Of a stretch of DNA of 64,000 nt, positions 8,369 to 34,158 are shown in pieces. A program made the translations under genes and the position numbers. Position 1 is the first letter of the stretch. Every line of letters begins with the position of its first letter. This stretch comes from a bacterium. Its GTDB lineage: Bacteria; Pseudomonadota; Alphaproteobacteria; Rs-D84; CACZYB01. Below the pieces are notes generated by a model, which did not search any database, was not told where the DNA came from, and saw nothing but the letters and a program-made list of their open reading frames with translations. The DNA is taken from the NCBI GenBank assembly GCA_014803575.1, contig JAAVBO010000022.1, forward strand, positions 4,138-68,137. Direction: 5' to 3'.

Positions 8369-8400
8369 AATGATGGTTAATAAAACTAAGGAGGTAAAAA

Positions 8401-10899: not shown

Positions 10900-10912
10900 T
10901 GTTATATTAAAA

Positions 10913-10938
10913 GGCAGTTTTTCGATTCTGCCTTTTTT
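10913..10938 (+). terminator. Rho-independent terminator
   Basis: ggcag...ctgcc hairpin + T6. Confidence 0.6.
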
Positions 10939-10972
10939 AGATTATGGACATAGATTATAAAGGATTTTTAAT

Positions 10973-17647: not shown

Positions 17648-18388
17648 ATGGATAATTTAAAAAATAATGAGTTAAAAAAAATTGTTCCTGATAATGGTAT
17701 TAAATCTGAGGTTGCAAATAAACCTTCTAATGTGCCGGAAAAATTTTGGAATAGTGAAACCGGAAGTTTAAGAGATGAAGAGCTTTTGAAATCTTATTTG
17801 GAATTAGAAAAAAAATTTAGTTCTTGTTCCAAAAAAAAAGGTGATGATAAAAATATTTTGGAACTTGCTCTTGAAACAGAAGGTCCTGCATCAGATTATA
17901 ATATTGTACTTCATCATAAGTTATTAGATATTGATGAGAATCTTAATAAGCGGTTAAAAAATGCCGGATTCACAAATGCTCAAGCTCAACTTGTTTATGA
18001 TTTAGGGGCTGAAATAGTTATGCCTTTGATTGAAAATATTGTTGAACAATTTCGTGCCTATCGTGAGCTTGAAAAGTTGGAAAAATATTTTGGTGGAGAG
18101 GAACGTTTTGATGAAATTTCAAGACAGATTTTGATGTGGGCTGAAAAAAATGTGCCGGAAGAAATTTATGAATCTCTTAATTCTTCTTATTATGGTGTTA
18201 TTGCTTTGTATAATATGATGACAAGTAACAATGAACCTTCTATGGTGAATATGAATGGTGAAGGAGAGAGTGTGTTAAGTGAAAAAAAATTAAGAAGTAT
18301 GATGAGTGATCCAAGATATTGGAGAGATGGTGATAAAGATTTTATAAAAAAAGTTGATGAAGGTTTTAAAAATTTATATGACAGATAA
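17648..18388 (+). CDS. T7 gp9-like capsid assembly (scaffolding) protein
   Basis: Acidic helical protein; GGEERFDEI ~ T7 gp9 GGRERFDAL and C-terminal MSDPRYWRDGDKDFIKKVDE ~ T7 gp9 MSDPRYRTDANYRRQVEQKV (from memory). Confidence 0.55.
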   Translation: MDNLKNNELKKIVPDNGIKSEVANKPSNVPEKFWNSETGSLRDEELLKSYLELEKKFSSCSKKKGDDKNILELALETEGPASDYNIVLHHKLLDIDENLNKRLKNAGFTNAQAQLVYDLGAEIVMPLIENIVEQFRAYRELEKLEKYFGGEERFDEISRQILMWAEKNVPEEIYESLNSSYYGVIALYNMMTSNNEPSMVNMNGEGESVLSEKKLRSMMSDPRYWRDGDKDFIKKVDEGFKNLYDR

Positions 18389-20733: not shown

Positions 20734-21297
20734 TTGATGAATAATTTTACAATGGTGGATTTGTGTTCTAAGGCTTTGAATAAAATAGGAGCAAGTGAAA
20801 TAGTTTCTTTTGACGAAGGAACACCAGAGGCGGAATTTTCAAGAAGTATATATCCTGTATTAAAGCATAAGTTATTATCATCATTTCCATGGAGTTTTGC
20901 AACGGAAATTAAAAGGCTTAATAAGATTGTTATTGAAGATGTGGAAGCAGAATTTTCTAATTGTTATTTGCTTCCGTCTGATTTTATAAGGGCAGTGAAA
21001 ATTTCATCAAAACTTCCATATAAGATTATTGGGGATAAATTATTTACCGATGCGACAGGTGTTATACTTACTTATATATCTGATGTTGATGAATGTAGGT
21101 TTTCATCTGCTTTTGTATCGGCATTTATTTATGCTATTGCAGCAGAATTATCGGTTTCGCTTTTGGATGATGTGACTAAATTTAATTTATTATACCGACT
21201 TTATACTTCTGAATTAAGGGAAGCAAGATTTTTAGACAGTATGCAGGAAAGTCCAAAAAAGTTTAATGACTTTTCTTTGATTGATGTGAGGTTTTAA
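20734..21297 (+). CDS. T7 gp11-like tail tubular protein A
   Basis: Size (187 aa), position after capsid, N-terminal ...KALNKIGASEIVSFDEG...WSF... resembles gp11 ...NDILASIGEPPVSTLEGD...WTF. Confidence 0.65.
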   Translation: MMNNFTMVDLCSKALNKIGASEIVSFDEGTPEAEFSRSIYPVLKHKLLSSFPWSFATEIKRLNKIVIEDVEAEFSNCYLLPSDFIRAVKISSKLPYKIIGDKLFTDATGVILTYISDVDECRFSSAFVSAFIYAIAAELSVSLLDDVTKFNLLYRLYTSELREARFLDSMQESPKKFNDFSLIDVRF

Positions 21298-21304
21298 GAG
21301 AGGA

Positions 21305-23218
21305 GTGAATATGTATAAACAAGTGATTTCTAATACTAACTTTTCCTATGGTGAAATTTCCCCTTATTTATTTGGAAGAGGAGATATTGAGGCATATAAA
21401 TCCGGAGCAATGACTATTTCGAATATGACAGTTATTCCTACCGGCGGAATAAAAAGAAGAGATGGAACTAAGTTTATATCTCAGTTGTCGGGTGTAGGAA
21501 AATTGTTGGTTTTTGAATATTCTTCGGACAAAGTATTTCTTTTGTGTTTTACTGATAAAATATTGTATATTTATGATAGCGATAATAATTTGGTCGCATC
21601 TTTGTATTCTCCGTTTAGTTTGGAACAACTTTCTAATATAAGATGGTCACAGAAAGGTAATCTTCTTTTTATTGTGCATAAGGATATTTTTCCTAAGATT
21701 TTAAAATATATTCCGTCTGGCAATATTTGGAAGTTTGAAGATTGGGTGTTTGATAAAAATCCGGAAACCGGAGCTTCGTATCAGCCGTTTGCAAAATTTG
21801 ATGATACAGAAGAAATTTCTCTTACTCCATCAAATTTGACCGGAGAGATAGAGTTGGAAGCTTCGGACGAATTTTTTGATGTTTCTTATGTCGGAACAAA
21901 AATTAAAATAAATGGTGGTGAAGTTTTGATTACAGAGTTTATTTCTTTTGTGAAAGTTAAGGCTTTGGTTATTATTGAATTAGAAGGTACGGAAGCTTCT
22001 TATTTTTGGCAAGAACAGGCATTTTCTTGCAGGCGAGGTTATCCTAAAACTATTACATTTCATCAAAACAGATTGGTTATAGGGGCATCAAAATCTTTAC
22101 CTAATAGATTGTGGTTTTCCAAAACTGGAAATTATTTTAATTTTGATTTAGGTGAAGGTCTTGATGATGAAGCGATAGAGTTTGATATGTTATCGGATAA
22201 AGTTAATGAAATTGTTTGTGTGTTTTCAGGACGGCATTTGCAGGTTTTTACATCTGATTCCGAATGGATGGTTTCCGGATTGCCTTTGACACCATCATCA
22301 TTATCCGTAAAACAACAAACAAAAATCGGTTCTGTTTCGGATAGATTTATCTCTCCTAAATTAATAGAAGGTTCAACTGTATTTGTTGCAAAAAATAATA
22401 AGGAAATCAGAGAATTTTTCTATGGTGATATTACTGAAAATTATTCATCCGAAGATTTGATTTTACTTTCTAACCATTTGATGAATAAACCGAAAGAATT
22501 GGATTATGATATTAAAAAAAGATTGCTTTATGTTTTACAAAGTGACGGAACTGTTTCTGTTTTACTTTTGAATAAAACAAGTGGTATTAATGCTTGGTTT
22601 AAATATGAAACTTGCGGAGAATTTATTTCTTTGTGTGTATTTTTAAATAATTTATATGTTATTGTAAAACGTGAAAATGACTATTTTTTAGAAGTATTTA
22701 CGGAAGATATTTTTACTGATAGTTCGTTGGTATTTAAATCTAAAAATAAAACAAATAAAATAGTTGGAATTTCCCATTTGAATAATAAAGTTGTCAGTGT
22801 TAATGCCGATAATTATGTTTTTGATGTAAAAGTTTTAAATGGGGAAATTAATTTACCGATTGAGGCGGAAAATATTTTTATCGGACTTCCTTATACACAT
22901 ATTTTGTGTCCGTTACCATTTTTGATAGGTGGTGTTAGGGCGCCTAAGGTTGTTAGGTTGTTTGATTTGTCTTTTCGTGTTATGGATACACCTTTATTGC
23001 AAATAGATACCGGTGATGGTTTAAGAAATATTACCTGTCGTAATTTTGACAGGGAAGATAATATTGATAATCCAATAAAAATTTTTAGCGGGGATGTTCA
23101 TATAAAGGCAAAAGGTTTGTTAAGAAATTTTAATGTTCCGTTATGGAAACTTCAAAGTTCAAAACCTTATAATGTTAATATTTTAAATGTTTCTGCTACT
23201 GTTGGTAGCGTAAAATAA
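21305..23218 (+). CDS. T7 gp12-like tail tubular protein B
   Basis: QNRLVIGASKSLPNRLWFSKTGNYFNFDLGEGLDDEAIEF ~ T7 gp12 FRNRLGFLSGENIILSRTAKYFNFYPASIANLSDDDPIDV; follows gp11-like gene. Confidence 0.75.
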   Translation: MNMYKQVISNTNFSYGEISPYLFGRGDIEAYKSGAMTISNMTVIPTGGIKRRDGTKFISQLSGVGKLLVFEYSSDKVFLLCFTDKILYIYDSDNNLVASLYSPFSLEQLSNIRWSQKGNLLFIVHKDIFPKILKYIPSGNIWKFEDWVFDKNPETGASYQPFAKFDDTEEISLTPSNLTGEIELEASDEFFDVSYVGTKIKINGGEVLITEFISFVKVKALVIIELEGTEASYFWQEQAFSCRRGYPKTITFHQNRLVIGASKSLPNRLWFSKTGNYFNFDLGEGLDDEAIEFDMLSDKVNEIVCVFSGRHLQVFTSDSEWMVSGLPLTPSSLSVKQQTKIGSVSDRFISPKLIEGSTVFVAKNNKEIREFFYGDITENYSSEDLILLSNHLMNKPKELDYDIKKRLLYVLQSDGTVSVLLLNKTSGINAWFKYETCGEFISLCVFLNNLYVIVKRENDYFLEVFTEDIFTDSSLVFKSKNKTNKIVGISHLNNKVVSVNADNYVFDVKVLNGEINLPIEAENIFIGLPYTHILCPLPFLIGGVRAPKVVRLFDLSFRVMDTPLLQIDTGDGLRNITCRNFDREDNIDNPIKIFSGDVHIKAKGLLRNFNVPLWKLQSSKPYNVNILNVSATVGSVK

Positions 23219-23236: not shown

Positions 23237-23707
23237 ATGGGTAATGTTGCTAATACTGTGAGTGCTGTGACATCGGCAGTTGGAGTTGTTGATAATATTG
23301 TTAGCTATAAAAACAATAAAGATAAACAAAAGGAAGAAAATAGAATATTAGAAGAAGAAAAGCGAATAAAAGAAGAGCAGATTGATGTAAAAAAACAACA
23401 ATATAAAGAAGAAAAAACAAATTTGTTGAAGGTGAAGCTTGCTTCTCAAAGGGCTAAATTGGGTGCTAACGGAATTAATGCAACTTCCGGCTCTTCTGTG
23501 GCATATCTTTCTAATTTAGAAAAGAATGTTGATGAAGAAATTGCAAAAAATGATTATTTCGCTGATTTGAATCTGCAAAATGAAAATAATATTTATAATT
23601 ATAAAAAGAAAGTTAATTTATTAAATTCATCAAAAAATAATTATAATGTTTTTTCTGATACTTTGAAGTCAACTACACAGCTTTTTTCTTCGTTATGGAA
23701 AATTTAA
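23237..23707 (+). CDS. coiled-coil phage-module protein (possible gp13-like internal/assembly protein)
   Basis: Position after gp12-like gene, size 156 aa, charged coiled-coil; no motif-level match. Confidence 0.3.
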   Translation: MGNVANTVSAVTSAVGVVDNIVSYKNNKDKQKEENRILEEEKRIKEEQIDVKKQQYKEEKTNLLKVKLASQRAKLGANGINATSGSSVAYLSNLEKNVDEEIAKNDYFADLNLQNENNIYNYKKKVNLLNSSKNNYNVFSDTLKSTTQLFSSLWKI

Positions 23708-23718
23708 AAGGGTAATTT

Positions 23719-24441
23719 ATGATGAATGATATTATTGAATATTCCTATATTTGTGATGGGAAACAAACTGTTTTTGAATATTTATTTGAAACTTTTTCTG
23801 TTCCATTTGTGAAAATTTATCTTGATGGAGAATTGATTGAAAAAGGTTTTACAGTTTATCCGTTTAATGATAAATGTGGTGGAAAGGTTGTGTTTGAATA
23901 TCCTCCATTAGCCGGTAAAAAATTAACTGTTTTAAGAGAATTGAATTTTTCCAGAGTTTGTGATTTTCAAACTGGCGGTGTTTTTAGGGCAGAGGATTTA
24001 AATTATGAAATGAATTATAATATTGCTTGTCTTAATCAGTTAGATAAAATATTGAAGAAATCTATAAAACTTTCCCGCTTTGATAACAAAGAAGTAAATC
24101 CTGTTTTGCCTCCGGCAAAGGCAGGTCATGCAATTGTATGGAACGAGAAGGGAAATGGATTTTCGAATTTAGATATTAATATAACCGAACAAGTAAACTT
24201 TGTTGAAGATTGCTTGAATTCGGTGGAAAATTTATATAATGATTTGACTGAGATTATTACAAACAGTCTTGATGTCGGTATTTTGGGACTTTTTCATAAT
24301 TTGTTGGGTCTTATCAGAGGATATCATCCCGATGCCTTTGAAGATTTTAAGTTAATTTCATCTGATTCGGATAAAATTTTTGATTATGGTTTGGTTAGTG
24401 ATACTCAAAACATTAATGTGAAAAATAATGGTAAATTGTAA
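23719..24441 (+). CDS. T7 gp17-like tail fibre, N-terminal adaptor domain only
   Basis: EYSYICDGKQTVFEYLFETFSVPFVKIYLDG ~ gp17 TYQLDGSNRDFNIPFEYLARKFVVVTLIG; FRAEDLNYEMN ~ LRAYDLNVAQI; 240 aa vs ~550 aa fibre, no distal domain. Confidence 0.55.
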   Translation: MMNDIIEYSYICDGKQTVFEYLFETFSVPFVKIYLDGELIEKGFTVYPFNDKCGGKVVFEYPPLAGKKLTVLRELNFSRVCDFQTGGVFRAEDLNYEMNYNIACLNQLDKILKKSIKLSRFDNKEVNPVLPPAKAGHAIVWNEKGNGFSNLDINITEQVNFVEDCLNSVENLYNDLTEIITNSLDVGILGLFHNLLGLIRGYHPDAFEDFKLISSDSDKIFDYGLVSDTQNINVKNNGKL

Positions 24442-25042
24442 AAAAAATACAAAAGTCAGTTTTTTAGAATTTTTGAAAATATGGTGTGATGTGCAAGGTA
24501 TTTCTTTGCCTTTGCACCATAAAAAAATTGCTCAGTGGTTGGAAGAGATTTTTTATTCTGATAAAAAAAAGGGGTTGTTATTAGCGTTCAGAAGTAGTGG
24601 GAAGTCTACTGTCGTTGGACTTTTTTGTTCATGGCTTTTGTATATTAACCCGAATGTCAGGATTTTGGTTTTGGCGGCGGATACGGTGCTTGCAAAAAAA
24701 ATGGTGCGAAATATAAAAAGGATAGTGGAGATTCATCCTATGTTAGAGGATATTAAACCCAAGAAAAAGCAAGAGTGGGCTTCGGGAAGTTTTACTGTGG
24801 AGCGAGATTTGGCACTTCGTGATCCATCTGTGATGGCGGTTGGACTTCTTTGCAATTCGACTGGAAGCAGGGCAGATGTTATTATTTGCGATGATGTGGA
24901 GGTGCCGAAGAACTGTGATACTTATCAAAAACGGTGTGATTTGAGGGAAAAATTATTGGAGTTGAATTTTATTTTGGTGCCTAATGGAATGCAGATTTTT
25001 ATAGGGACACCACATACTTTTGATACCATTTACAAGGTTTAA
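24428..25042 (+). CDS. T7 gp19-like large terminase, N-terminal ATPase half (stand-alone ORF)
   Basis: Walker A LAFRSSGKST, GSRADVIICDDVEVP ~ T7 GSRADIIIADDVEIP, IGTPHTFDTIYKV ~ LGTPQTEMTLYK; stops immediately after this motif. Confidence 0.8.
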   Translation: MVNCKKNTKVSFLEFLKIWCDVQGISLPLHHKKIAQWLEEIFYSDKKKGLLLAFRSSGKSTVVGLFCSWLLYINPNVRILVLAADTVLAKKMVRNIKRIVEIHPMLEDIKPKKKQEWASGSFTVERDLALRDPSVMAVGLLCNSTGSRADVIICDDVEVPKNCDTYQKRCDLREKLLELNFILVPNGMQIFIGTPHTFDTIYKV

Positions 25043-25096
25043 ACAGTTGATTTTTTGCCCTCTTTTATACAGAAAATATTTTTTTTCAAATAATTA

Positions 25097-25124
25097 TTGA
25101 CAAAGTAAAATATGTTTGTATAAT
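25097..25124 (+). promoter_or_regulatory. consensus sigma70 promoter (TTGACA-16-TATAAT) driving repeat array
   Basis: Perfect -35 and -10 hexamers seen in sequence. Confidence 0.6.
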
Positions 25125-25197
25125 GGAGGTAGTTTAGTTAGTTAAAAAAGAATTTGCCGGGACGACCCCTCATTTCGGCAAATCTGGTGAAAGCCAG

Positions 25198-25500
25198 TAA
25201 ATTCCCCTAAGTCATTCCCTCCTTATTTTCTCTCTCCTCGACTTAGGGGATAAATTTTTACCGAGAATTCCGAGTAATCTCACAAAGGCGAACTAAAATT
25301 TTCTACTAACCCCGTAGAAAATTAAGTTCTTGTTTGTTCGGTTTCTCTCTCCTCGACTTAGGGGATAAATTTTTACCGAGAATTCCGAGTATAGCAAACC
25401 AGATATCCTAAACTTCTCGCTAAAACCGCTCGTCGTTAAGGATAACTTCGTTTGCTATTCTCTCTTCTCGACTTAGGGGATAAATTTTTATTGATATTTC
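25198..25500 (+). repeat. tandem array: 48-nt direct repeat x3 (third degenerate) with 66-67-nt structured spacers
   Basis: tctctctcctcgacttaggggataaatttttaccgagaattccgagta at 25229-25276, 25344-25391, degenerate at 25459-~25494; first repeat closes an 11-bp stem with 25203-25213 around a CT-rich loop. Confidence 0.8.
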
Positions 25501-25555
25501 TATCTTTATTTAATATTATTTGTAATAATTTAATACAAATAAGAAAGGTGAAAAA

Positions 25556-26215
25556 ATGAAACTCAGCACAGTTGAAAAAATCTATATTATTGAATTTTTG
25601 GGTAGGTATGTTTTGCCTGAATATATGCCTCAAGATTTAAAAAAACAAAGAAGACTCATAACTATGCAGGATGATCTTTCCGGAATTATTAAAGAAAAAA
25701 CCAAAGATAAAAATGAAATAAAGAGAATGATAAAAACTTATATTGAAGACTCTTTACGCTTTTATGTTGAAAGTTTTAATATATCAATGGAAGAGGTGTA
25801 TAATATAGATATAGATGGTGTATTTCCTTCTACTGAAAAAAACATTGTATCAGTAGAAAAAAGTGATTTAGGCAGATATGAAGTTTCAAGACATTTTGGT
25901 GTTATAACAACTGATGAAATAAAGGCTACTTATATTGGTGGCGCAGGAAACTTTTTATATAATGGTAAAAGGGGTATTAGTATTCCAAATTATGTATTTG
26001 ATGATATTAAGGAAGGAAAGAATAATAAATATTTTAAACTATATAATACGGAAGTATATAATCCACCTTATTATAGTCAACATTATTTAGTTGAACCATA
26101 TCGTATACCAAATAATGGATATGTTGAGTTGCCGATAGAGCCTATTCCTTATGATAAAAATTTTGTTGATAGGGAAGTTAATTTAATTTATAAAGCTCGT
26201 GAAAATCAAAGATAG
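25556..26215 (+). CDS. hypothetical protein (219 aa)
   Basis: RBS aaggtg; no recognisable motif; own terminator. Confidence 0.5.
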   Translation: MKLSTVEKIYIIEFLGRYVLPEYMPQDLKKQRRLITMQDDLSGIIKEKTKDKNEIKRMIKTYIEDSLRFYVESFNISMEEVYNIDIDGVFPSTEKNIVSVEKSDLGRYEVSRHFGVITTDEIKATYIGGAGNFLYNGKRGISIPNYVFDDIKEGKNNKYFKLYNTEVYNPPYYSQHYLVEPYRIPNNGYVELPIEPIPYDKNFVDREVNLIYKARENQR

Positions 26216-26221
26216 TAAAAT

Positions 26222-26246
26222 TCCCCTTGGTTTTAGGGGATTTTTT
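26222..26246 (+). terminator. Rho-independent terminator
   Basis: tcccc-ttggtttt-agggga hairpin + T6. Confidence 0.6.
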
Positions 26247-26575
26247 ATGGGAGATTAATTTTTTTGATTTTTTATTTGAAATTTTTGTTTTAAATTGCTA
26301 AAAATAAAACTGTATTTTAAAAGATTTGCGAATCGGTTTAATTTTTTTATAAAAAAGAATCGATTCTTTTGTGTTTTTTAAGATTTTATTGTTTAGACAA
26401 TCTAATTTTTAAAAAGAATCTTTAAAATTTTAATATGTTGTTTTTACAGCATTATTTTCTATTTTTGTGTACTTTAAAAGTTGTCAAAAAAAGAATCGCT
26501 TGACTTTTTTTGTCGAATGTTTTAAGAATCGTTGTATGAAGCGAATAGAAATTGTTTCTGTGAAACTTCAAACCT

Positions 26576-26818
26576 ATTCCCTGTTGCGTTCCTTTTCTCT
26601 CCTTTCCTCCTTCTCTCCTCGCAACGGGGAATTTTTTTGTGCTGATGGAATATTACGGACAGATAGCCTTCGTTAATGTCTAACTTACAGTTTTTTGGTG
26701 GAGATTTTGTGTCGGGTGGGCGTTGACCCAAACAAGCAATCCTAAGCTTCTCACTAATATCGTTCGTCGCTAAGGATAGCTGGGTTTGTGTTCTCCTCGC
26801 AACGGGGAATTTTTTTTG
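26576..26818 (+). repeat. paralogous structured-repeat array (two units) with long terminator-like hairpin
   Basis: 13-bp stem attccctgttgcg/cgcaacggggaat around 31-nt CT-rich loop + T7 (26576-26638); second unit 26732-26818 homologous to spacer-2/repeat-3 of first array. Confidence 0.75.
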
Positions 26819-27028
26819 TGCCTATGGGTATTGCTGACAGAGAGCTTTTAGATAGTAAAAATATTTATAAAGATTTATAAAAGTAGGTCCATATGTGCCC
26901 GCCCCAAGGGGGATAGACCAAAGAGTATCGGCTTTGATGACTGATGAAGGTGTGAAATTCAAAATAATCCTTGAAAGTTTTCTGTGTTTCAGTTTATACT
27001 TCAAAATATAAAAAACGAAAGGTCTATT

Positions 27029-27805
27029 ATGAATAATGTAAATGCGAATACCAATACTGAAAAAGAAGAAATTAAATATTTGACCCTTGATGATATAGAT
27101 AAAATGTATGAAGAGGCGGAACCTGCGGATTGGGGTTTCCCAGAGAACTATAGTGCTGTAGCTTCTAATAGATATCAAAATTTAACAACTTATGTAAAAC
27201 TTACTAAAATAGAGATAGAACGATTACCTGCTGATCATGCTAAGCTTCTTTTAGATTTTTATAATTTGTTTGATGAAAATGAACCTTATAAAGATAAGGA
27301 AGGTACTCCATATAGGGATAATTTATTAAATGATTTATATTATAATATATATGATGACGATTATGCACCTCTGTTTTCATCATCTAATGGAAAAAAAATC
27401 TATAGACACGATATTAAGTATGTAGAAAAGAACTGGAATAATCGTGTTGTAAAGGTTACTAAAATAGGAACAGAAGAAATACCAGTATTAGATAAAAATC
27501 AAAAGATAGAGAAATTGAAAAAATCCTTTGATATATTCAAAAGATTAAAAGAAAGGGATTTAGTTCTTGCCAGTATGTATGATAGAATAGTTAAGGAGGG
27601 GAGGGACTACTTGACATACCATGATTATCTTGGAAATTTTAATACACATTGTATGCTATTAGACGAAGGACGTTTACTTGATTATATAAGATATTTTTTT
27701 GCTAAAGCTAATTGGCGTGGTGCTTTATTTATACAGAACAAATTTCCAAATGTAAAAGTCACGGAAAATATGATGGCACAGTATTTGGAATATAAAGGAA
27801 GGTAA
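27029..27805 (+). CDS. hypothetical protein (258 aa)
   Basis: ATG 27029 with RBS gaaagg preferred over GTG 26984 of ORF track; no recognisable motif. Confidence 0.5.
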   Translation: MNNVNANTNTEKEEIKYLTLDDIDKMYEEAEPADWGFPENYSAVASNRYQNLTTYVKLTKIEIERLPADHAKLLLDFYNLFDENEPYKDKEGTPYRDNLLNDLYYNIYDDDYAPLFSSSNGKKIYRHDIKYVEKNWNNRVVKVTKIGTEEIPVLDKNQKIEKLKKSFDIFKRLKERDLVLASMYDRIVKEGRDYLTYHDYLGNFNTHCMLLDEGRLLDYIRYFFAKANWRGALFIQNKFPNVKVTENMMAQYLEYKGR

Positions 27806-27811
27806 TAAAAT

Positions 27812-27836
27812 CCCCTCTTTTGAGGGGTTGTTTTTT
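27812..27836 (+). terminator. Rho-independent terminator
   Basis: cccctc-tttt-gagggg hairpin + T-run. Confidence 0.55.
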
Positions 27837-27838
27837 AT

Positions 27839-28795
27839 ATGATATTTATGTATAATAATACTATGAATGAAGAGTATTTTAATATTGCCGGTTTTACAAA
27901 GTATCCAACGAATATATATAATTCGGAGCCGGAGAATGGTTATGCTCAAGGGGTGAATGAATGTAAGATTCCGGAGGCCTTGGTTTATTATGGCTTAGAT
28001 TCTGATACCCAATTTATGAAGTTATTTAATCCTGTATGGTATAGTGTTTTGAAGAGTTGTAAATTGCAGGCTGTTGTTTATAGTATATCAAATTATTTAT
28101 TTGATAACAGTCTTTCTCCTTTGTGGAATAAGTTTGAAAGAAATGTTGTTGATATGTTGCCGGCTGTGATAATTCTTTGCGGTTGGCAAAGGCATATTGA
28201 AAATATGAAAAAGAAAAAATTTGATATAACTCAGATTGAATTTAACAGGCAAGAGATACGAAATACTTTGACAAAGGGTATGCGAGTTTATGGGAAATCC
28301 GGTATGCTTATATCCGGAATGATATGGGCGAGTATATTATTGAATGCGAATCTTGTACAGTTAGGATGTTTACAATATGAAATAAAGAAAGCAAATAATC
28401 AATATGTGTGTGATGAAATATCTATTGGAGATATGATTGTTGCGATACATATTCCTGCCGGAGCTTTGTTTACTCCTGATGCAGTAGAGAAATCCATTAC
28501 AATGGCAAAGGAGTATTTTGGAGATAAGGTTTCGTTTATATGTAATTCTTGGTTATTGGGTGAACAGTTGGGTACTTGTCTAAAATCTGACAGTAATATT
28601 TTTAATTTTCGAAGGTATTTTAGTATAATTAAAACGGAAGATTCTGAATCTGTTTATAATTTTTTATTTAATAATGCGGATGATAATCCTAATATATCTG
28701 ATTTAGCGGAGGGAACATCTTTGCAAAAGTCAGTTAAAAAGGCTATGTTATCAGGTATTCATTTTTATGATGCGATTGGGATTTTGAAATGTTAA
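27839..28795 (+). CDS. hypothetical protein (318 aa)
   Basis: No recognisable motif; start uncertain. Confidence 0.45.
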   Translation: MIFMYNNTMNEEYFNIAGFTKYPTNIYNSEPENGYAQGVNECKIPEALVYYGLDSDTQFMKLFNPVWYSVLKSCKLQAVVYSISNYLFDNSLSPLWNKFERNVVDMLPAVIILCGWQRHIENMKKKKFDITQIEFNRQEIRNTLTKGMRVYGKSGMLISGMIWASILLNANLVQLGCLQYEIKKANNQYVCDEISIGDMIVAIHIPAGALFTPDAVEKSITMAKEYFGDKVSFICNSWLLGEQLGTCLKSDSNIFNFRRYFSIIKTEDSESVYNFLFNNADDNPNISDLAEGTSLQKSVKKAMLSGIHFYDAIGILKC

Positions 28796-28908
28796 GACTT
28801 ATATTTGGTTTAGATATAAAATAGGAGGCCGAAAAATATTTCTTTTTGCTTAAAATAAAAAAAAAGGTTGCCTTTTTGTAAAATATAGGTTATAAATCTA
28901 TCATCTTT

Positions 28909-28984
28909 GGCTAGGTAGCTCAGTCGGTAGAGCAAAGGACTGAAAATCCTTGTGTCGGCGGTTCGATTCCGCCCCTCGCCACCA
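28909..28984 (+). tRNA. tRNA-Phe (GAA)
   Basis: Cloverleaf by hand: anticodon loop cuGAAaa, T-arm ggcgg/ttcgatt/ccgcc, encoded CCA. Confidence 0.85.
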
Positions 28985-28995
28985 TAAAAGGTCAG

Positions 28996-29018
28996 ACTCT
29001 CGTTTTCGGGAGTTTTTT
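28996..29018 (+). terminator. terminator after tRNA-Phe
   Basis: actctcg-tttt-cgggagt hairpin + T6. Confidence 0.55.
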
Positions 29019-29020
29019 AT

Positions 29021-29246
29021 TTGTGTGTCGGCGGTTCGATTGTCCTCGGGCTTTGCCCTCGTTCGTCCCGTAAGGCTCAACTTCGGACTTTGTCCTCGTT
29101 TTGCCAACTATCGACTCGTCCTCGGGCTTTGCCCTCGTTCGTCCCGTAAGCTTAAAGCATCGCCTTTGGCTCGCGTTTAAGCAACTATCGACTCCCGCCC
29201 CTCGCCACCATAAAAGGTTGAACTCCCTATTTTGGGAGTTTTTTTA
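29021..29246 (+). other. second copy of tRNA-Phe 3' end (att-like direct repeat) split by a 153-bp GC-rich insert, followed by duplicated terminator
   Basis: gtgtcggcggttcgatt (29024-29041) ... ccgcccctcgccaccataaaagg (29195-29217) match the tRNA 3' end; insert 29042-29194 = two 76-nt units each starting with tcctcgggctttgccctcgttcgtcccgtaag and ending aactatcgactc. Confidence 0.7.
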
Positions 29247-29341
29247 TGTTTAAAGTTTTTTTTCTTAAAAATTTTCTTTATCTCTTAACATTTTGCTTTT
29301 TTTATGGTATAATGTCGGGGAATAAAGTAAGGAGAGATATT

Positions 29342-30958
29342 ATGATAGGAGAAGGAAACTTCGGCTATAATTCACAAAATGATGATGATATTCAAAATTT
29401 TATTCCACGAATCACCGTAATGGGAGTTGGTGGTGCCGGTTGTAATGCCGTGGGAAATATGATTTCTCAGGGTATTGACGGTGTTGATTTTGTTGTTGCA
29501 AATACAGATGCTCAGTCTTTGATGCAATCAAAAGCATCAAGGAAAATCCAACTTGGAAAGCAAACAACTCGCGGTTTTGGTGCCGGTTCTCGTCCGGAAG
29601 TAGGGCAAAGTGCGGCGGAAGAATCCTTAAATGAAATTACTGATGTTATTAAAAACTCTAATATATTATTTTTAACTGGCGGTATGGGTGGCGGAACTGG
29701 TAGTGGTGCTATGCCCGTGATTGCCTCGGTTGCAAAGGAAAAGGGGATTTTAACGGTTGCAATTATTACTACACCTTTTGATTTTGAAGGGGAAAAGAAA
29801 AAGCGTATTGCAAAAGAGGCTATTTCCAAACTTATCCCTAATGTGGATTGTGTAATAACACTTCCTAATCAGAATTTATTTAAGGTTGCGGATAAGCAAA
29901 TGTCGTTTATGAATGCCTTTAAGTTATCTGATAATGTCCTTTATGAAGGGGTTAGAAATATTACAGATTTAATTATGAAACCTGGACTTATTAACCTTGA
30001 TTTTGCCGATATAAGGGCGGTTATGGAAGGACAAGGTAAGACAATAATCGGGACTTCTGTTCAAAGTGGTGAAAATAGGGCTTTAAAGGCGGTGGAAGGT
30101 GCTCTTCTTAATCCTCTGCTTTCTAATGAAAGTATAAGTGGAGCAAAGGGTATTCTTGTAAATATTACCGGTAATGCGTCAAATCTTTCCTTGGAAGAAG
30201 TTGGGGAGATTATGAATACCATTAGAGCCGGAATAAATTCAGAAGATACGAATTTTGTATTTGGAACTTGCTTTGATGATTCTATGGGTGACAGTTTGAA
30301 AGTTGCAATTATTGCAACCGGAATTGATGGTGCAAACGTATCGCAAAAGCCGGTCCTCAGCAGTTTTGATAGTTTTACATCTGAGGTTGTAAAACCTACA
30401 CCTTATTCATTTGAGGAAGAAAAGAAAGTTGAAATTAAAATGGAAGAACCTGTTATCAAAGAAGATAATTTGAAAGTTAAACAGGAACCGATTGTAAATA
30501 CTGATAAACTTGATAGTTTTTTTGAAACCGGTGATGAAAAGGATATTCAAAGTTTTATTGATGAGGAAGCAGAAAAGCTTAACATTGCAAGTAATGTAAC
30601 AAATGAACTTTTTGCCGATAAATCAGATAAAATTTCATCTTCTGATGATGATGGTGATGATAATCCGGAACCACCAAAGGGAAAAAAGAAAAATCCTTTG
30701 TCATCATTTTTTGATATGATTGGAGAAAAAGGTAATGATGATACTTTCTTTGAAGATGTTGATTTGGGAAAGGATGATGATATTACTTTTAAGAAAGAAG
30801 AGCAAATTTCCGATAAAAAGGAAGAAGATAATGTCGTTTTTTTAGCAGGTAGTCTTGATACTAAAAATCAAGAGGATAAGCAAATTGATTTGATGGAAAT
30901 GATTAAAAAAATGGAGGAAACTTTGGAAATACCTGCAATATTTAAAAAAGGTTCTTAA
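29342..30958 (+). CDS. ftsZ: cell division GTPase FtsZ (long acidic C-terminal linker)
   Basis: GVGGAGCNAV, GGGTGSG tubulin signature; ATG 29342 with RBS aggagag preferred over ORF-track start 29246. Confidence 0.9.
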   Translation: MIGEGNFGYNSQNDDDIQNFIPRITVMGVGGAGCNAVGNMISQGIDGVDFVVANTDAQSLMQSKASRKIQLGKQTTRGFGAGSRPEVGQSAAEESLNEITDVIKNSNILFLTGGMGGGTGSGAMPVIASVAKEKGILTVAIITTPFDFEGEKKKRIAKEAISKLIPNVDCVITLPNQNLFKVADKQMSFMNAFKLSDNVLYEGVRNITDLIMKPGLINLDFADIRAVMEGQGKTIIGTSVQSGENRALKAVEGALLNPLLSNESISGAKGILVNITGNASNLSLEEVGEIMNTIRAGINSEDTNFVFGTCFDDSMGDSLKVAIIATGIDGANVSQKPVLSSFDSFTSEVVKPTPYSFEEEKKVEIKMEEPVIKEDNLKVKQEPIVNTDKLDSFFETGDEKDIQSFIDEEAEKLNIASNVTNELFADKSDKISSSDDDGDDNPEPPKGKKKNPLSSFFDMIGEKGNDDTFFEDVDLGKDDDITFKKEEQISDKKEEDNVVFLAGSLDTKNQEDKQIDLMEMIKKMEETLEIPAIFKKGS

Positions 30959-30979
30959 AAGTTTATTTTTGCTGTTTGT

Positions 30980-31010
30980 CCCTTTGATTTTTTTCAAAGG
31001 GATTTTTTTT
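30980..31010 (+). terminator. Rho-independent terminator after ftsZ
   Basis: ccctttga-tttttt-tcaaaggg hairpin + T8. Confidence 0.6.
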
Positions 31011-31033
31011 ATTTATAAATAAAGGAGTGAAAT

Positions 31034-32530
31034 ATGATAGAAACAAATATTACAGATAAAAATATGATAGACGGTATTTACGAAAGGTATATTAATGCCT
31101 TGGAAAAACGTGCCGTTTGGGAAAATTATTGGGAGGAATGTTATGAATATGCTTTGCCACAAAAAAGCGGGATTTTCAAAAATGATAATGGCAGTGTGAA
31201 AAAAAATTCGACTGTTTTTGATTCAACTGCGGAATCTGCAGTAGACAGACTTGCCAGTAGTCTTCTTTCTCAACTTACACCGCCTTGGTCAAAATGGTTC
31301 GGGCTTGAATTTGGAATTGATATAAGTGATGATGAGGAAAGGTCGGAAAAGGTTCTTCAACTTGAAAATATTGAAAAAATTTTGCAATCGCATTTTGACA
31401 GGTCTAATTTTTATGTGGAGGCACATCAATGCTATCTTGATTTGATAACTGTCGGAACGGCGGTTATGTTATTTGAAGAAAATGCGGTCGGTGAAAATTC
31501 TGCGTTTAAATTTACGGCCGTGCCTATGAATGAAATTGTTTTTGAAGATAGCGGAAATGGAAAATTGGATAGTGTGTTTAGGCGTTCTAATGTTTCTCTT
31601 TCCAATTTGAAATCAAGGTTTGTAAATAGTGTTTTTGATGAAAGACAACAAGATATTATTTCAAAAAATTCTGATAAAAAAGTTTATGTGATTGAGGTGG
31701 TAGTTCCTCGTATTACCTCAACCGGACAACAAGGATATAATTACTTTGCGTTTGTGGATGATGTTGATGGAATATTTGGCAGTGATGAAAGAATTGTCCT
31801 TAAAACCGGAGTATTTGCAAATTCTCCGTTTATTTGTTTCAGATGGCAGAAGGTAAGTTCCGAAATATATGGAAGATCGCCCGTGATGAAGGCACTTCCC
31901 GATATTAAAACTGCAAACAAGGTTGTAGAGCTTATCCTTAAAAATGCGTCTATTGCGGTAAGCGGTATTTGGCAGGCGGATGATGACGGGATTCTAAATC
32001 CTCAGAATATTACTCTTGCCCCCGGAACTATTATACCAAAGGCAGTTGGATCTGCCGGACTTACACCTATCAGAAGCGGTGCTGATTTTGATGTGTCGCA
32101 ACTTGTTCTTTCTGATTTAAGGGCCAATATCAACAGGTGCTTATTGGTGGATCAATTGACTGCTTCGTCCGGTGGTAAAATGACTGCTACGGAAGTGATA
32201 GAGCGAATAAATCAGATATCCCGTATTTTGGGTGCGACTTATGGCAGATTGCAATCGGAGTTTTTGACTCCTGTCATTATTCGTGCGGTTAGCATTTTGA
32301 AGCGTCGCGGGGAAATTTCTGATATAATGGTGAATGGGTATGAAGTTGATTTGAAGTATCAATCTCCACTTGCGCAAAATCAGATAGTTCGCGATGCCGA
32401 AAATGTTTTAAATTGGATAAAAACTTTGGCTGAATTTGGTGAAGATGCAATGAGTATTATTGATAAAAAGGCTGTCGCATTATGGCTTGGTAAAGTTTTT
32501 GGTGTGTCTGAAAAATTGATTATATCTTAG
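31034..32530 (+). CDS. T7 gp8-like portal (head-to-tail connector) protein
   Basis: EIYGRSPV ~ T7 gp8 ESYGRSYI; GGKMTATEVIERINQISRILGATYGRLQSEFLTPV ~ GERVTAEEIRYVASELEDTLGGVYSILSQELQLPL (from memory). Confidence 0.75.
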   Translation: MIETNITDKNMIDGIYERYINALEKRAVWENYWEECYEYALPQKSGIFKNDNGSVKKNSTVFDSTAESAVDRLASSLLSQLTPPWSKWFGLEFGIDISDDEERSEKVLQLENIEKILQSHFDRSNFYVEAHQCYLDLITVGTAVMLFEENAVGENSAFKFTAVPMNEIVFEDSGNGKLDSVFRRSNVSLSNLKSRFVNSVFDERQQDIISKNSDKKVYVIEVVVPRITSTGQQGYNYFAFVDDVDGIFGSDERIVLKTGVFANSPFICFRWQKVSSEIYGRSPVMKALPDIKTANKVVELILKNASIAVSGIWQADDDGILNPQNITLAPGTIIPKAVGSAGLTPIRSGADFDVSQLVLSDLRANINRCLLVDQLTASSGGKMTATEVIERINQISRILGATYGRLQSEFLTPVIIRAVSILKRRGEISDIMVNGYEVDLKYQSPLAQNQIVRDAENVLNWIKTLAEFGEDAMSIIDKKAVALWLGKVFGVSEKLIIS

Positions 32531-32545
32531 TTTAAAGAGGTTATT

Positions 32546-33427
32546 ATGGAAGAAGATTTGAGTAAGCCTTTTTTGGTCGGGTTTGATGTCCTTAAAATAC
32601 CTGTGATTGAAAATGGAAAACCTACTTGGGAAGAAAAGTTTCCGATTCAAAAAATAGAGGAGCTTAAGGCACGAGTTGGAATTAAAAAATTTTCTTCCCA
32701 AATGATGTTGATGCCTATTGATACAAATAAGGGTAGGTTCGATGTAAAAAAATTAAAATTTTATTCATCAGAACTTCTTATGGAAGAAAGAAACAGGCTT
32801 CTTAATTTTTCAATTAATGGGAATAAGGTTGTAAGTTGTTCTTGTTGGTGGGATCCGTCCTATGGGTCAAGAGGTGGTGACGGAAGTGTAATTTCTGTTG
32901 TTTTTATTGATGAAGTGGGGCGATATTATCTTCATGATGTAAAGTATTTATATCATTCTGATGGGAATGCAGAGGAAATTCAGTCTGCGGTTGACCAATG
33001 TAGGCAAGTGGGCGAATTTTTGCGGGAAAATCATATACCTTCTGTGTATGTGGAAAGTAATGGCATAGGCAAATTTTTGCCGGGGTTTTTAAGAGGAGAG
33101 CTTTCAAAAATGGGGGTAAATGCTACTGTTATTGAAAAAACATCCAGAATTTCAAAGAATTTGAGGATTTTAGATGCGTTTGATGTGATTATTTCCGCTG
33201 GGTATCTTTTTGTGAATGAAAAGGTTAAAGATACGCCTTGGATTGCAGAATTTTGTGATTGGGGTGTGGATACAAAATCGCATGATGACGGGCTTGACAG
33301 TGTTGCGGGGGCTATTTCTTCGCAACCGGTCAGACTTCCTTTGACTTTGTTTTCCGGTTTAAAGGGCAGGTATAGTTTGGCCGGAAAAACCTTTAAAATA
33401 AAGACTAATTTTGATATAGATTTTTAA
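32546..33427 (+). CDS. T7 gp19-like large terminase, C-terminal nuclease half (stand-alone ORF)
   Basis: FSSQMMLMP ~ FTLQFMLNP; WWDPSYGSRGGDGSVISVV ~ VIDPSGRGKDETGYAVLYT; HDDGLDSVAGAIS ~ HDDRLDALALGIE; own RBS aagagg 15 bp after portal stop. Confidence 0.8.
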   Translation: MEEDLSKPFLVGFDVLKIPVIENGKPTWEEKFPIQKIEELKARVGIKKFSSQMMLMPIDTNKGRFDVKKLKFYSSELLMEERNRLLNFSINGNKVVSCSCWWDPSYGSRGGDGSVISVVFIDEVGRYYLHDVKYLYHSDGNAEEIQSAVDQCRQVGEFLRENHIPSVYVESNGIGKFLPGFLRGELSKMGVNATVIEKTSRISKNLRILDAFDVIISAGYLFVNEKVKDTPWIAEFCDWGVDTKSHDDGLDSVAGAISSQPVRLPLTLFSGLKGRYSLAGKTFKIKTNFDIDF

Positions 33428-33501: not shown

Positions 33502-34158
33502 ATGAATATGGATAATAAAAAATATTATATTGTATTTACAGGATTATTTTTAATCTTTGTAGGTTTCTTTGTTTATTTTATCGATTCGTCTAAAAAGGTA
33601 GAAAATAAAACAGTTAGTTTGACAAAACCTGTTTCTTATTCTGTGGAAACCGTGAAAGTGGTGAAAGTTGTTCAGGCGGAAAAACCAAAGGGATTGCCTC
33701 TTAATTATGTGTATGAAATTCCTAATTTTGAAAGAAGTATACCTTATTATTTAGGAACAAAGAGATTTATTGAAGAATTGGATAATTTTCAAATTATTTG
33801 CAGTGGAAAAAATTGCAACAGGCAGATTTTGACCGGCAAAAATGCAACAACTTCTAACTGTAATAGAAAAAATAATGTTAAAATTAAGGTTGTCAGAGGT
33901 GATGTGACTTTTTCAAAGAATAATTTGAAATATCTTAAAAGTAATACAAAGATAGTTGGTGATTTATATATTCGTGATATAAATTTCCTTAAAATTCCGA
34001 AAAATTTTGCTGTGATTGGAAATGTTTATGTTATAAATTCCGATGGACTTACTTTTATGGGTAAAAATTTTATTGATGGTCATATTTTTGTGAAGGGTAA
34101 GAGCAGTATCAGGGCTCTTCCATACGATGTAAAATTAACTGGTCAAATATTTATTTAA
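33502..34158 (+). CDS. membrane-anchored hypothetical protein
   Basis: N-terminal TM; repetitive beta-rich C-terminus; no motif. Confidence 0.4.
   Translation: MNMDNKKYYIVFTGLFLIFVGFFVYFIDSSKKVENKTVSLTKPVSYSVETVKVVKVVQAEKPKGLPLNYVYEIPNFERSIPYYLGTKRFIEELDNFQIICSGKNCNRQILTGKNATTSNCNRKNNVKIKVVRGDVTFSKNNLKYLKSNTKIVGDLYIRDINFLKIPKNFAVIGNVYVINSDGLTFMGKNFIDGHIFVKGKSSIRALPYDVKLTGQIFI

Follow-up and report, generated by a model that had tools for sequence, protein, structure and literature searches.

In all phages studied so far, to our knowledge, the large terminase (TerL) consists of one polypeptide. In the window analysed here, a 64,000-nucleotide stretch of the chromosome of a low-GC alphaproteobacterium, it is encoded by two stand-alone genes 7.5 kb apart, and no paper describing a two-gene terminase of this kind was found in the literature. 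The locus raises the question of how the gene came to be divided and whether its two products can still act as one terminase.

Chromosomal setting of the T7-like cluster

The window carries a T7-like (podovirus-type) structural and packaging cluster (Table 1). The DNA is not a phage genome; since ftsZ, tRNA-Phe and mipZ are interleaved with the phage-like genes, the setting of the split terL is a bacterial chromosome. Together with recJ, these host genes are interleaved with or flank a cluster that holds T7-like structural genes only, and no match to integrase or replication families was obtained among the flanking ORFs scanned. Upstream of TerL-N the genes are arranged in the order scaffold, capsid, tubular A, nozzle (tubular B), small internal virion protein and T7 tail-fibre N-domain protein, the last of which overlaps the start of TerL-N by 14 nt at its 3' end. 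This order is that of T7, as predicted, although the large T7 core proteins gp15 and gp16 are missing. No small terminase subunit was identified, and the 218-aa protein encoded after TerL-C is without a family match in Pfam or PHROG.

Assemblies made independently from several samples (L001-L003, L009) showed the same layout, so the split is not an assembly artefact. Relatives of the cluster were found in at least 597 species genomes (about 600 alphaproteobacterial species), and in the unsplit family the host genes beside the cluster differ between genera, with no conserved flank. We infer domestication of the entire cluster in the window, although the variable flanks make this less certain for the whole family.

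Table 1. Features of the T7-like cluster and of the gap between the terminase genes (positions in the window)
Feature	Coordinates	Strand	Evidence
T7-type scaffold (capsid assembly) protein	17648..18388	+	PF05396 on identical L001 product; orthologs in all related loci
Major capsid protein, 278 aa	19557..20393	+	phrog_3437 major head protein, E 3e-78; PF19821 on identical product (L001)
Tail tubular protein A	20734..21297	+	phrog_394 tail protein, E 6e-37
Nozzle / tail tubular protein B	21305..23218	+	phrog_376, E 4e-110; PF25675 Phage_nozzle, E 4e-6
Small internal virion protein	23237..23707	+	phrog_418, E 4e-7
T7 tail-fibre N-terminal (tail-attachment) domain protein	23719..24441	+	PF03906, E 5e-4, under Pfam cut-off; L011 ortholog has PF03906
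TerL-N, ATPase core of large terminase, 204 aa	24428..25042	+	phrog_38 positions 264-458, E 2e-38
Candidate small-RNA gene directly 3' of TerL-N	25097..25506	+	promoter, hairpins, terminator
Variable cargo: 219-aa and 273-aa ORFs, GNAT_C-domain protein (27839-28795)	25556..28795	+	
Candidate small RNA	26500..26639	+	promoter, hairpin with loop UUCCUUUUCUCUCCUUUCCUCCUUCUCUCC, T-run
tRNA-Phe (GAA), host gene in gap	28909..28984	+	
ftsZ, host cell-division gene in gap	29246..30958	+	PF00091, E 2e-45; PF12327, E 3e-23
T7-type portal (head-to-tail connector)	31034..32530	+	PF12236, E 8e-123
TerL-C, lid/linker, nuclease and C-terminal tail, 293 aa	32546..33427	+	phrog_38 positions 468-701, E 1.6e-34
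218-aa protein after TerL-C	33502..34158	+	same place in window, L013 and L014

The two terminase genes and the position of the break

The clean split of terL was confirmed, with both ORFs lying exactly where they had been predicted. TerL-N contains Walker A (GKS, residues 58-60), Walker B (DDVE, 155-158) and motif III (GTPH, 193-196) and ends in ...IGTPHTFDTIYKV-stop. TerL-C comprises a lid/linker segment (residues ~1-65), an RNase H-like nuclease with the catalytic residues D103, E170 and D247/D248/D251, and a conserved C-terminal tail; its match to PF22530 (E 3.6e-4) is under the cut-off. As foreseen, it has its own ATG with a ribosome-binding site (AAGAGG, 6 nt upstream) and begins 15 nt after the end of the portal gene. 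TerL-N likewise possesses a separate start codon.

The phrog_38 matches of the two halves are adjacent and do not overlap within the 760 positions of that family. In BLASTP searches against P0181, the unsplit 499-aa TerL of Terasakiella sp. SH-1, TerL-N residues 8-202 corresponded to residues 3-197 and TerL-C residues 2-292 to residues 204-498; only about six residues, in a variable loop, lie between the matched parts. No internal TerL segment is missing in this comparison, which bears out the claim that nothing was lost, and neither half carries extra sequence at its new terminus. No decayed duplicate terL fragments were present within the window. The proposed T7 equivalences held as well: ...GTPHTYYTIYAE of P0181 aligned to ...GTPQTEMTLYKE of T7 gp19 (at about residue 212), placing the end of the N ORF past the counterpart of the T7 GTPQTEMTLYK motif, and FESQMML of P0181 aligned with FTLQFML of gp19. 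TerL-N ends 5-7 residues past Y197, and TerL-C starts a few residues ahead of the conserved PFL motif.

The break had been attributed to the linker between ATPase and nuclease. Pfam limits and AF2 models place it instead in a variable surface loop just past ATPase motif III. In the P0181 model (pLDDT 88) it falls within the coil 189-215, after the motif III strand and before strand 216-220 and helices 237-255, and one strand and two helices lie between the break and the nuclease fold in the model of the unsplit homolog. Pfam Terminase_6C starts at residue ~304 of the unsplit protein, equal to residue 98 of a C half (~95 residues in), while Terminase_6N has reached only model positions 110-128 of 215 at residues 156-174, and about 65-90 positions of the ATPase model are left at the break. 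By these models, the C half includes about 65-95 residues that are structurally part of the ATPase. When TerL-C was modelled alone, its residues 1-60 had a pLDDT of 42-73 (nuclease domain about 80-95), whereas inside the fused AF2 model the same segment reached 87-96. These residues are conserved, with F9, L10, L16, I18, P19, G24 and W28 invariant.

No disabling mutations were found in catalytic residues: of the 72 positions at which 83 unsplit homologs are invariant, the window halves keep 71, including all ATPase and nuclease motifs (GKS, DDVE, GTPH and D306/E374/D451/D452/D455 in P0181 numbering). The dN/dS values, rough because dS is saturated (> 1) in all usable pairs, were 0.10-0.16 (TerN) and 0.14-0.28 (TerC); the portal gave 0.13-0.19, the capsid 0.13-0.18 and the 218-aa protein 0.31-0.47. 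Both halves are intact, and the purifying selection on them is comparable to that on the portal and capsid genes. Since the N-half and C-half trees are congruent and identity ranks run parallel, the halves derive from one terminase lineage and not from different ones.

Layouts in relatives and origin of the split

An unsplit gene was sought and found in relatives, terL being fused in 74 of the 84 loci with both halves scorable. The unsplit proteins of Rhodospirillales-type Alphaproteobacteria (Terasakiella, Magnetospirillum, Thalassospira and others) are direct homologs from the same structural-genes-only cluster, with 53-60% identity to the N half and 43-47% to the C half, but they are encoded by a single ORF of ~499 aa instead of two genes. 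About 30 stand-alone C halves (276-310 aa) were found, and 76 of 120 N-half homolog clusters end 0-6 residues from the same position. On contigs long enough to show the pair, both halves always co-occur.

The order TerN, ftsZ, portal-TerC recurs in L011, L013, L014, L073 and L093, reaching down to 57-61% N-half identity, and the core clade with this layout has an NJ bootstrap of 86%. Within the window's clade the halves are separated by 3.0-8.1 kb, with varying gap contents; in L094 the order is reversed, the C half lying upstream of the N half. Splits in place also occur. In L176/L177 the stop and start overlap (ATGGGTGA, with a GGAGGA ribosome-binding site) and the TerN-TerC pair has no other structural gene inside 8 kb, and in L020 the same loop is split with the halves 270 nt apart. 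Deep phylogeny is weakly supported, the bootstrap joining L020 to the window's clade being 2% and that of the L095 type 17%.

The gap in the window holds variable cargo ORFs, two of which (219 and 273 aa) are without a family match. Between strains that share 99-100% identity in the flanking genes, the cargo ORFs share 81-97%, and they are missing from L011 and L013. Directly behind TerL-N, the first candidate small RNA has a promoter that matches the sigma-70 consensus perfectly, two hairpins, and a terminator hairpin whose loop is CU-rich; three 50-nt direct repeats follow at an exact spacing of 115 nt. This candidate has no Rfam match, and its promoter and first unit are kept after TerN in L013, L014 and L015. 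The second candidate shows compensatory changes in its stems. The window, L013, L014, L093 and L020 carry an exact copy of its 20-nt loop core, which is absent from the other 168 loci (2.5 Mb of loci), even with 3 mismatches allowed; in L020, a candidate small RNA with this loop is the only feature in the 270-nt gap. Terminator-like hairpins stand after tRNA-Phe and after ftsZ; the latter, ahead of the portal gene, has just 30 nt to spare.

Taken jointly, we consider it probable that terL underwent fission in a domesticated T7-like cluster, beginning in place and followed by separation, and that both products are functional and reassemble as a heterodimer. The gene would have been divided in the variable loop just after motif III, most likely giving two adjacent ORFs as in L176/L177 and L020; later rearrangement of the chromosome, together with insertions, would have moved the halves apart and brought small-RNA genes, cargo ORFs, tRNA-Phe, ftsZ and portal between them, leaving TerL-N last in the scaffold-to-fibre operon and TerL-C behind the portal gene. 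Because of the in-place splits, a single translocation is not needed for the split and is probably not its cause, contrary to the original prediction of one translocation or insertion event. L020 is not joined to the window's clade by bootstrap and may therefore represent a separate fission and not the ancestral arrangement; the in-place-first order for this clade would then depend on the shared small RNA alone.

One rearrangement with its breakpoint inside terL, moving either the scaffold-to-TerN or the ftsZ-portal block, could also have made the split, but this seems unlikely. It would agree with the earliest reconstructable layout of the core clade (L011, L093, L013, L014 and the window), which already has ftsZ-portal between the halves, with the lack of adjacent halves in any member of the 86%-supported clade, and with the failure of the TerL tree to link L020 to it. 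It is harder to reconcile with the in-place splits of the same loop, with the exact small-RNA gene common to L020 (directly after TerN) and the window's clade, with the variable length and content of the gap and the reversed order in L094, and with the absence of remnant fragments from the window. A random breakpoint is moreover unlikely to hit one permissive loop with a clean start and stop unless selected from many failures.

Known packaging systems and the proposed two-chain terminase

T7 gp19 and the PhiV-1 large terminase (PDB 4bij, 8dgc) have Walker A, Walker B, GTPxT...Y, FxxQxML and HDDxLD motifs in common with the chromosomal TerL, as well as the fold (Foldseek E 3.6e-28, unsplit-homolog model against 8dgc_E), and the portal, scaffold and tubular proteins are likewise T7-type. 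At 586 aa in a single chain, T7 gp19 is about 87 residues longer than the chromosomal TerL family in general, whereas the window encodes two chains of 204 and 293 aa. The nearest TerL of an isolated phage is less than 30% identical.

The products could also work separately, TerL-N as a stand-alone packaging ATPase and TerL-C as a portal-associated nuclease, or the host could have recruited one or both; we regard this as decidedly improbable. A precedent exists in phi29 gp16, a stand-alone ASCE packaging ATPase whose chain bears no nuclease domain and which can nevertheless package DNA, and the halves do lie in different operons, TerN following the fibre gene and TerC the portal gene, or, in L176/L177, as a pair apart from other structural genes. 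However, phi29 is not known to have any terminase nuclease and uses pRNA, whereas in the window the nuclease is kept on a second chain that also appears to bear part of the ATPase domain. The constant co-occurrence of the halves on sufficiently long contigs and their parallel rates of evolution also argue against separate roles, and TerL-C residues 1-60, conserved yet confidently predicted only when fused, fit a docking segment.

A dead T7-like prophage decaying into fragments is a very improbable source of the two ORFs. The element is without replication, integration and large core-protein genes, and the terL of one relative (L012) is shortened by a premature stop or frameshift; dN/dS far under 1, the retained invariant residues, the stop position shared by 76 sequence clusters and homology-identified module genes that are intact across species down to 57% N-half identity speak strongly against decay. 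In Jug and crAss-like phages, terL with group I introns or inteins is likewise annotated as two or three ORFs, but those pieces are adjacent, co-transcribed and rejoined by splicing, as RNA reads confirmed for Jug phages (PMC12880540). Restoration by this known route (group I/II intron, intein, trans-splicing or split intein) is scarcely conceivable here, as Rfam returned only tRNAs and no intron family for the window at gathering scores, a threshold relaxed to E up to 1 gave no intron family either after TerN or within the L020 gap, the half termini are too close to Y197 and PFL to leave room for intein halves, the essential host genes in the gap (tRNA-Phe and ftsZ) each have a terminator-like hairpin behind, and the C half precedes the N half in L094.

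A non-covalent two-chain terminase is the most likely mechanism. As suggested by the single-chain models, TerL-N and TerL-C would reassemble without a covalent link, the first ~65 residues of TerL-C docking on TerL-N and completing the ATPase domain. Phage structural genes under purifying selection are also found in alphaproteobacterial chromosomes, including reduced endosymbiont genomes, as RcGTA-type gene transfer agents, sometimes dispersed among several loci, the terminase lying apart from the main cluster (PMC9254644). The window resembles these in the retention of such genes, but RcGTA is siphovirus/HK97-type with a prohead protease, tail tube and single-chain TerL, while the cluster described here is T7/podovirus-type. 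The heterodimer would replace the normal TerL protomer on the portal in DNA packaging and cutting, and the putative packaged particle would be phage-like and probably gene-transfer-agent-like.

The terminase halves and the element that carries them

The large terminase is encoded here as two genes within a T7-like element, an N half (TerL-N) and a C half (TerL-C). Both predicted open reading frames were found on the plus strand, and they match adjacent, non-overlapping parts of the profile of one PHROG large-terminase family.

Coordinates of the terminase halves and of other features in the window
Feature	Position	Strand	Description
TerL-N	24428-25042	+	204 aa; phrog_38 profile positions 264-458, E 2e-38
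Candidate tandem small-RNA array	25097-25506		promoter, structured unit, repeats
Variable ORFs	25556-28795		219 aa, 273 aa, GNAT_C-domain protein
Candidate small RNA	26500-26639		hairpin with loop UUCCUUUUCUCUCCUUUCCUCCUUCUCUCC
Second copy of 3' stem and T-run	26790-26810		from the candidate small RNA
Repeat of 3' part of tRNA-Phe	29020-29215		gtcggcggttcgatt ... cccgcccctcgccaccataaaagg
ftsZ ORF, opening stretch	29246-29340		~32 hydrophobic residues
TerL-C	32546-33427	+	293 aa; phrog_38 profile positions 468-701, E 1.6e-34
HTH protein	36377-37375		332 aa; two HTH_3 domains
tRNA-Asp call (ARAGORN)	50142-50233		92 nt; anticodon ATC

Aligned to P0181, the unsplit 499-aa TerL of Terasakiella sp. 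SH-1, TerL-N corresponds to residues 3-197 and TerL-C to residues 204-498, and seven further unsplit homologs gave the same picture. What separates the halves is only about 6 residues from a loop that is variable and acidic, so that the original prediction was right that nothing had been lost; the equivalences it had drawn to motifs of T7 gp19 also hold in the alignment. The ATPase motifs of TerL-N (GKS 58-60, DDVE 155-158, GTPH 193-196) are invariant columns in 83 unsplit homologs, and the nuclease residues D103, E170 and D247/D248/D251 are kept in TerL-C. Altogether 71 of the 72 invariant residues of these homologs are retained, including Walker A, Walker B/Glu, motif III and the nuclease acidics; the single lost one is located within the disordered C-terminal tail, and no disabling mutation of catalytic residues was found. 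TerL-C stays below the gathering score of PF22530 (21.2 vs 27 bits), and its homologs pass the cut-off of PF17289.

The ATPase and the nuclease are not joined on one polypeptide, as the two ORFs are 7.5 kb apart and the first stops after ...TIYKV. The start of TerL-N overlaps the end of a tail-fibre-domain gene by 14 nt. TerL-C has the ribosome-binding site of its own that had been predicted (AAGAGG), and, likewise as predicted, 15 nt separate it from the end of the portal gene (PF12236, E 8e-123). Pairwise dN/dS (NG86), which is rough because dS is saturated, was 0.10-0.16 for TerN, 0.14-0.28 for TerC, 0.13-0.19 for the portal and 0.13-0.18 for the capsid. Trees and identity matrices of the N and C halves were congruent, which places both in a single lineage, in agreement with the prediction that both belong to one terminase. 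Judged from these comparisons, TerL-N and TerL-C are functional genes, and packaging and cleavage on the portal are predicted for them from genomic association.

The window does not represent a phage genome, having a GC content of ~32% and carrying tRNAs, recJ, a lytic transglycosylase, ftsZ, mipZ/parA and ABC transporters. The T7-type module encodes scaffold, capsid, tubular A, nozzle, a small internal virion protein, a fibre N-domain protein, TerL-N, portal and TerL-C. The large T7 core proteins are absent from it, no small-terminase candidate was present among the small ORFs upstream of the scaffold gene, and the flanking ORFs scanned gave no match to integrase, polymerase or replication families. 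This is the gene content of the gene transfer agent (GTA) class: phage genes for head, tail and packaging lie in the chromosome, with no modules for replication or integration. Host genes (recJ, an mltB-like gene, ftsZ, tRNA-Phe and mipZ) flank or interrupt the cluster; gene order relative to ftsZ and mipZ is conserved within the split clade, with dN/dS of 0.1-0.4 (dS saturated). In the unsplit family the neighbouring genes vary from genus to genus, those in common being just two small ORFs plus a Hydrolase_2 gene downstream of terL, and therefore no conserved chromosomal site is claimed for it. A decaying prophage remnant is made very unlikely by the intact motifs, low dN/dS, shared stop site and conserved gene set, and an assembly artefact is ruled out by the same arrangement in independent metagenome assemblies. 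Membership of the RcGTA-like family, whose head-tail cluster includes an HK97-type capsid with prohead protease and a tail tube, can also be dismissed, since all identifiable genes are of T7/podovirus type (PF12236 portal, PF05396 scaffold, nozzle, tubular A). The T7-like element has probably been domesticated.

Downstream of TerL-C, the HTH protein is homologous over its full length, at 36% identity (E 1e-64), to the HTH gene situated between TerN and TerC in loci of the L095 type described below, and it could be a regulator tied to the element. The tRNA-Asp call is probably false, because Rfam did not report it at gathering score.

Distribution of the split forms and position of the break

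N-half relatives were found in at least 597 genomes in a scan of one genome per species. The majority belong to Rhodospirillales-type Alphaproteobacteria (Terasakiella, Magnetospirillum, Thalassospira, Caenispirillum) or to gut and rumen alphaproteobacterial MAGs. The closest TerL of an isolated phage shows less than 30% identity, and in IMG/VR these clusters are stored as "viral" contigs, roughly 4-20 kb long and in many cases truncated. The unsplit gene exists in relatives: of the 84 loci in which both halves could be scored, 74 carry terL as one ORF of ~499 aa within a similar cluster. In one locus (L012, on an 803-kb contig) a terL of the same family at 10001-11420 is shortened by a premature stop or frameshift to a 313-aa product; ~3.4 kb downstream of it, beyond a Hydrolase_2 gene, a GTA_holin_3TM-domain gene is located at 14342-14734.

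The arrangement of the window, scaffold to fibre and TerN, an interval of 0.06-4.7 kb, then ftsZ, portal and TerC, recurs in five loci (L011, L013, L014, L073 and L093) and persists down to 57-61% N-half identity. A second arrangement, the L095 type, accounts for 19 of 80 IMG/VR loci; here TerN is followed after ~3.35 kb, in L095 holding dnaB and two other minus-strand genes, by TerC and portal. In locus L094 the order is reversed, TerN coming 7.7 kb after the portal-TerC pair, and an ORF considered as ftsZ upstream of its portal proved not to be ftsZ. Two more PHROG families, 4758 with 243 profile positions and 5573 with 250, may be stand-alone halves that come from other viruses or proviruses.

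The break itself was predicted to be at the ATPase-nuclease linker. It falls earlier, after the strand of motif III, according to AF2 modelling, Pfam boundaries and Foldseek. In the AF2 model of unsplit P0181 (pLDDT 88) the break residues 198-203 form a coil following the motif III strand (178-188); beyond them come a strand (216-220) and two helices (237-247 and 249-255), and the RNase H-like fold starts only from ~275. The Pfam nuclease model begins at residue 304 of P0194, another unsplit homolog, equal to residue 98 of a stand-alone C half, while of the 215 positions of the Pfam ATPase model only 110-128 are reached, by residues 156-174. With Foldseek, ATPase-only crystal constructs (~255 aa) align over ~270 columns and nuclease-only constructs over ~220. 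When TerL-C was modelled alone, residues 1-60 had a pLDDT of 42-73 and the nuclease domain ~80-95; the segment equivalent to those 60 residues scores 87-96 in the fused model. On these four lines of evidence, residues 1 to ~65 of TerL-C are read as the lid/linker subdomain of the ATPase, which we take to correspond to N-subdomain II of T4 gp17, the lid of P74-26 and the linker domain of Sf6. Among the 120 best N-half clusters, 76 end 0-6 residues from the same position, and ~30 stand-alone C halves of 276-310 aa were found. The fission site is recurrent and lies inside the ATPase domain.

Origin of the split and content of the interval

A terL in pieces is known from interruption by introns or inteins, where splicing restores the gene (PMC12880540). 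The gene of the window differs in that neither was found. Rfam finds only tRNAs in the window, with no self-splicing intron, and at E up to 1 nothing in 25040-25560 or in the gap of L020, a locus with closely spaced halves; no intein or split-intein sequence is present at the junction, where both new termini stay within a few residues of the unsplit protein, with no additional domain. An interrupted, spliced terL is ruled out on these grounds.

An NJ tree of concatenated TerL (486 columns, 51 sequences, 200 bootstrap replicates) recovered a core clade of the window, L013, L014, L011, L093 and L094 with 86% bootstrap. The other split lineages were not joined to it, the bootstrap values being 17% (L095 type), 2% (L020) and 0% (all nine split lineages together). 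An earlier midpoint-rooted tree with few outgroups had pointed to one clade of split forms; a single origin is unsupported given the nine-lineage value and the grouping of L176 with unsplit proteins. From this topology, fission at the loop after motif III has occurred at least twice, and there may have been four or five such events.

In two lineages the break is found in place. L176 and L177, two strains 98.6% identical with a 39-nt indel in the linker, carry a distantly related TerN/TerC pair (8001-9480, in a 1.47-Mb chromosome contig) with a stop/start overlap ATGGGTGA and a GGAGGA site; no other T7-like structural gene was found within 8 kb of it. Their linker contains a PKFPE repeat that is longer in one strain than in the other. 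In L020, TerN and TerC are 270 nt apart, and nothing but a small-RNA gene, which has a promoter and a terminator of its own, lies between them.

The interval in the window holds two candidate small-RNA genes, three strain-variable ORFs, tRNA-Phe, ftsZ and the portal gene. The variable ORFs show 81-97% identity between strains, against 99-100% for the flanking structural genes, and sister species lack them, so that the gap acts as a site for variable cargo. At 55 nt past the TerL-N stop a perfect sigma-70 consensus promoter (TTGACA, 16 nt, TATAAT) precedes a structured unit of ~110 nt, made up of two hairpins plus a terminator hairpin whose loop is CU-rich, and kept in L013, L014 and locus L015. 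Three 50-nt direct repeats follow at an exact spacing of 115 nt, their spacers unlike each other. The region looks like a tandem small-RNA array; its unit had no match in Rfam.

The second candidate small RNA, whose hairpin loop looks like an anti-Shine-Dalgarno sequence, has counterparts in L013 (~11270-11400), L014 (~11040-11150, minus strand), L093 (~11290-11415) and L020 (~10690-10840). Its 20-nt loop core is exact after TerN in the window, L013, L014 and L093 and in the L020 gap, and absent from the other 168 loci (2.5 Mb) with 3 mismatches allowed; in the loci examined this RNA occurs only beside split terL-N genes. The stems differ between lineages, with compensatory changes, and the TerL-N proteins of the carriers are only 57-61% identical. 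The restriction of the exact loop to these loci argues that one TerN-small RNA junction was inherited by L020 and the clade of the window, a grouping not recovered in the TerL tree. The split in this clade may have started with insertion of the small-RNA gene into the coding sequence.

Tandem duplication with random loss, as a cause of the block swap, is ruled out by fission in place elsewhere and by tblastn, which at E up to 1 detected no decayed copies of any element gene in the window. The original prediction had read the gene order as a single translocation or insertion; such a rearrangement having created the split in the core clade is improbable beside the in-place fissions of L176/L177 and L020 and the lack of decayed duplicates. 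We rather favour, with some reserve, in-place fission first and dispersal of the halves later. The original observation is confirmed and its interpretation partly supported.

Within the interval, the 3' stem and T-run of the second small RNA are duplicated nearby. Just behind tRNA-Phe and the terminator that follows it comes a copy of the 3' part of the tRNA, together with a second terminator; this copy is interrupted by ~165 nt holding a ~50-nt internal direct repeat (beginning gtcctcgggctttgccctcgttcgtcccgtaag). The arrangement may be a scar left when DNA inserted into the tRNA gene. The true ftsZ start codon is probably further downstream than listed, since the hydrophobic opening stretch is missing in orthologs and alignments to L011 and L093 begin near residue 47.

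A putative two-chain motor and its significance

In the proposed mechanism TerL-N would be translated at the end of the tail operon and TerL-C together with the portal. The lid/linker segment would have to dock on TerL-N and would complete its ATPase fold, which makes reassembly from two chains plausible; in the pentameric motor on the portal, this heterodimer would take the place of the usual protomer. TerL-C ends in a conserved tail (consensus F-R-I-K-T-x-F-x-I), which may be the portal-binding end by analogy with T3/T7 gp19.

Capsid, scaffold, portal and both terminase activities appear to be kept under selection, whereas the element has no replication genes and is interleaved with essential host genes. 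A host-encoded DNA-packaging particle of GTA type would explain this most economically. Scattered phage genes under purifying selection have a precedent in RcGTA-type elements of reduced endosymbionts (PMC9254644). Those elements derive from a different phage type and have a single-chain TerL, whereas the present one is of T7/podovirus type and two-chain.

Literature on T7-like GTAs, split terminases and conserved T7-like prophages (Rhodospirillales/Rickettsiales) yielded nothing on this element, which is weak evidence as coverage was incomplete. No description of a permanently split TerL was found, the sole "split terL" match being intron-split genes. We advance only tentatively the full proposal of an undescribed T7-derived GTA-type particle system in at least ~600 alphaproteobacterial species, with a motor repeatedly split at one permissive loop after motif III, as the first natural two-chain large terminases.

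Current packaging-motor models have force passing between the ATPase core, lid/linker subdomain and nuclease domain of a single TerL chain. A terminase long kept as two chains, broken between ATPase core and lid, is a natural experiment on this model, as it tells which covalent link the motor can do without. For mechanistic or engineering work, it also points to about residues 210-216 of T7 gp19 as a place to split model terminases. For annotation, stand-alone "N-terminal" or "C-terminal" terminase ORFs are not automatically pseudogenes. Alphaproteobacteria already supply the model gene transfer agents; here a T7-type structural module resides in bacterial chromosomes, interleaved in this clade with ftsZ or dnaB, and if particles are made, it would constitute a class of domesticated phage element that is both new and widespread.
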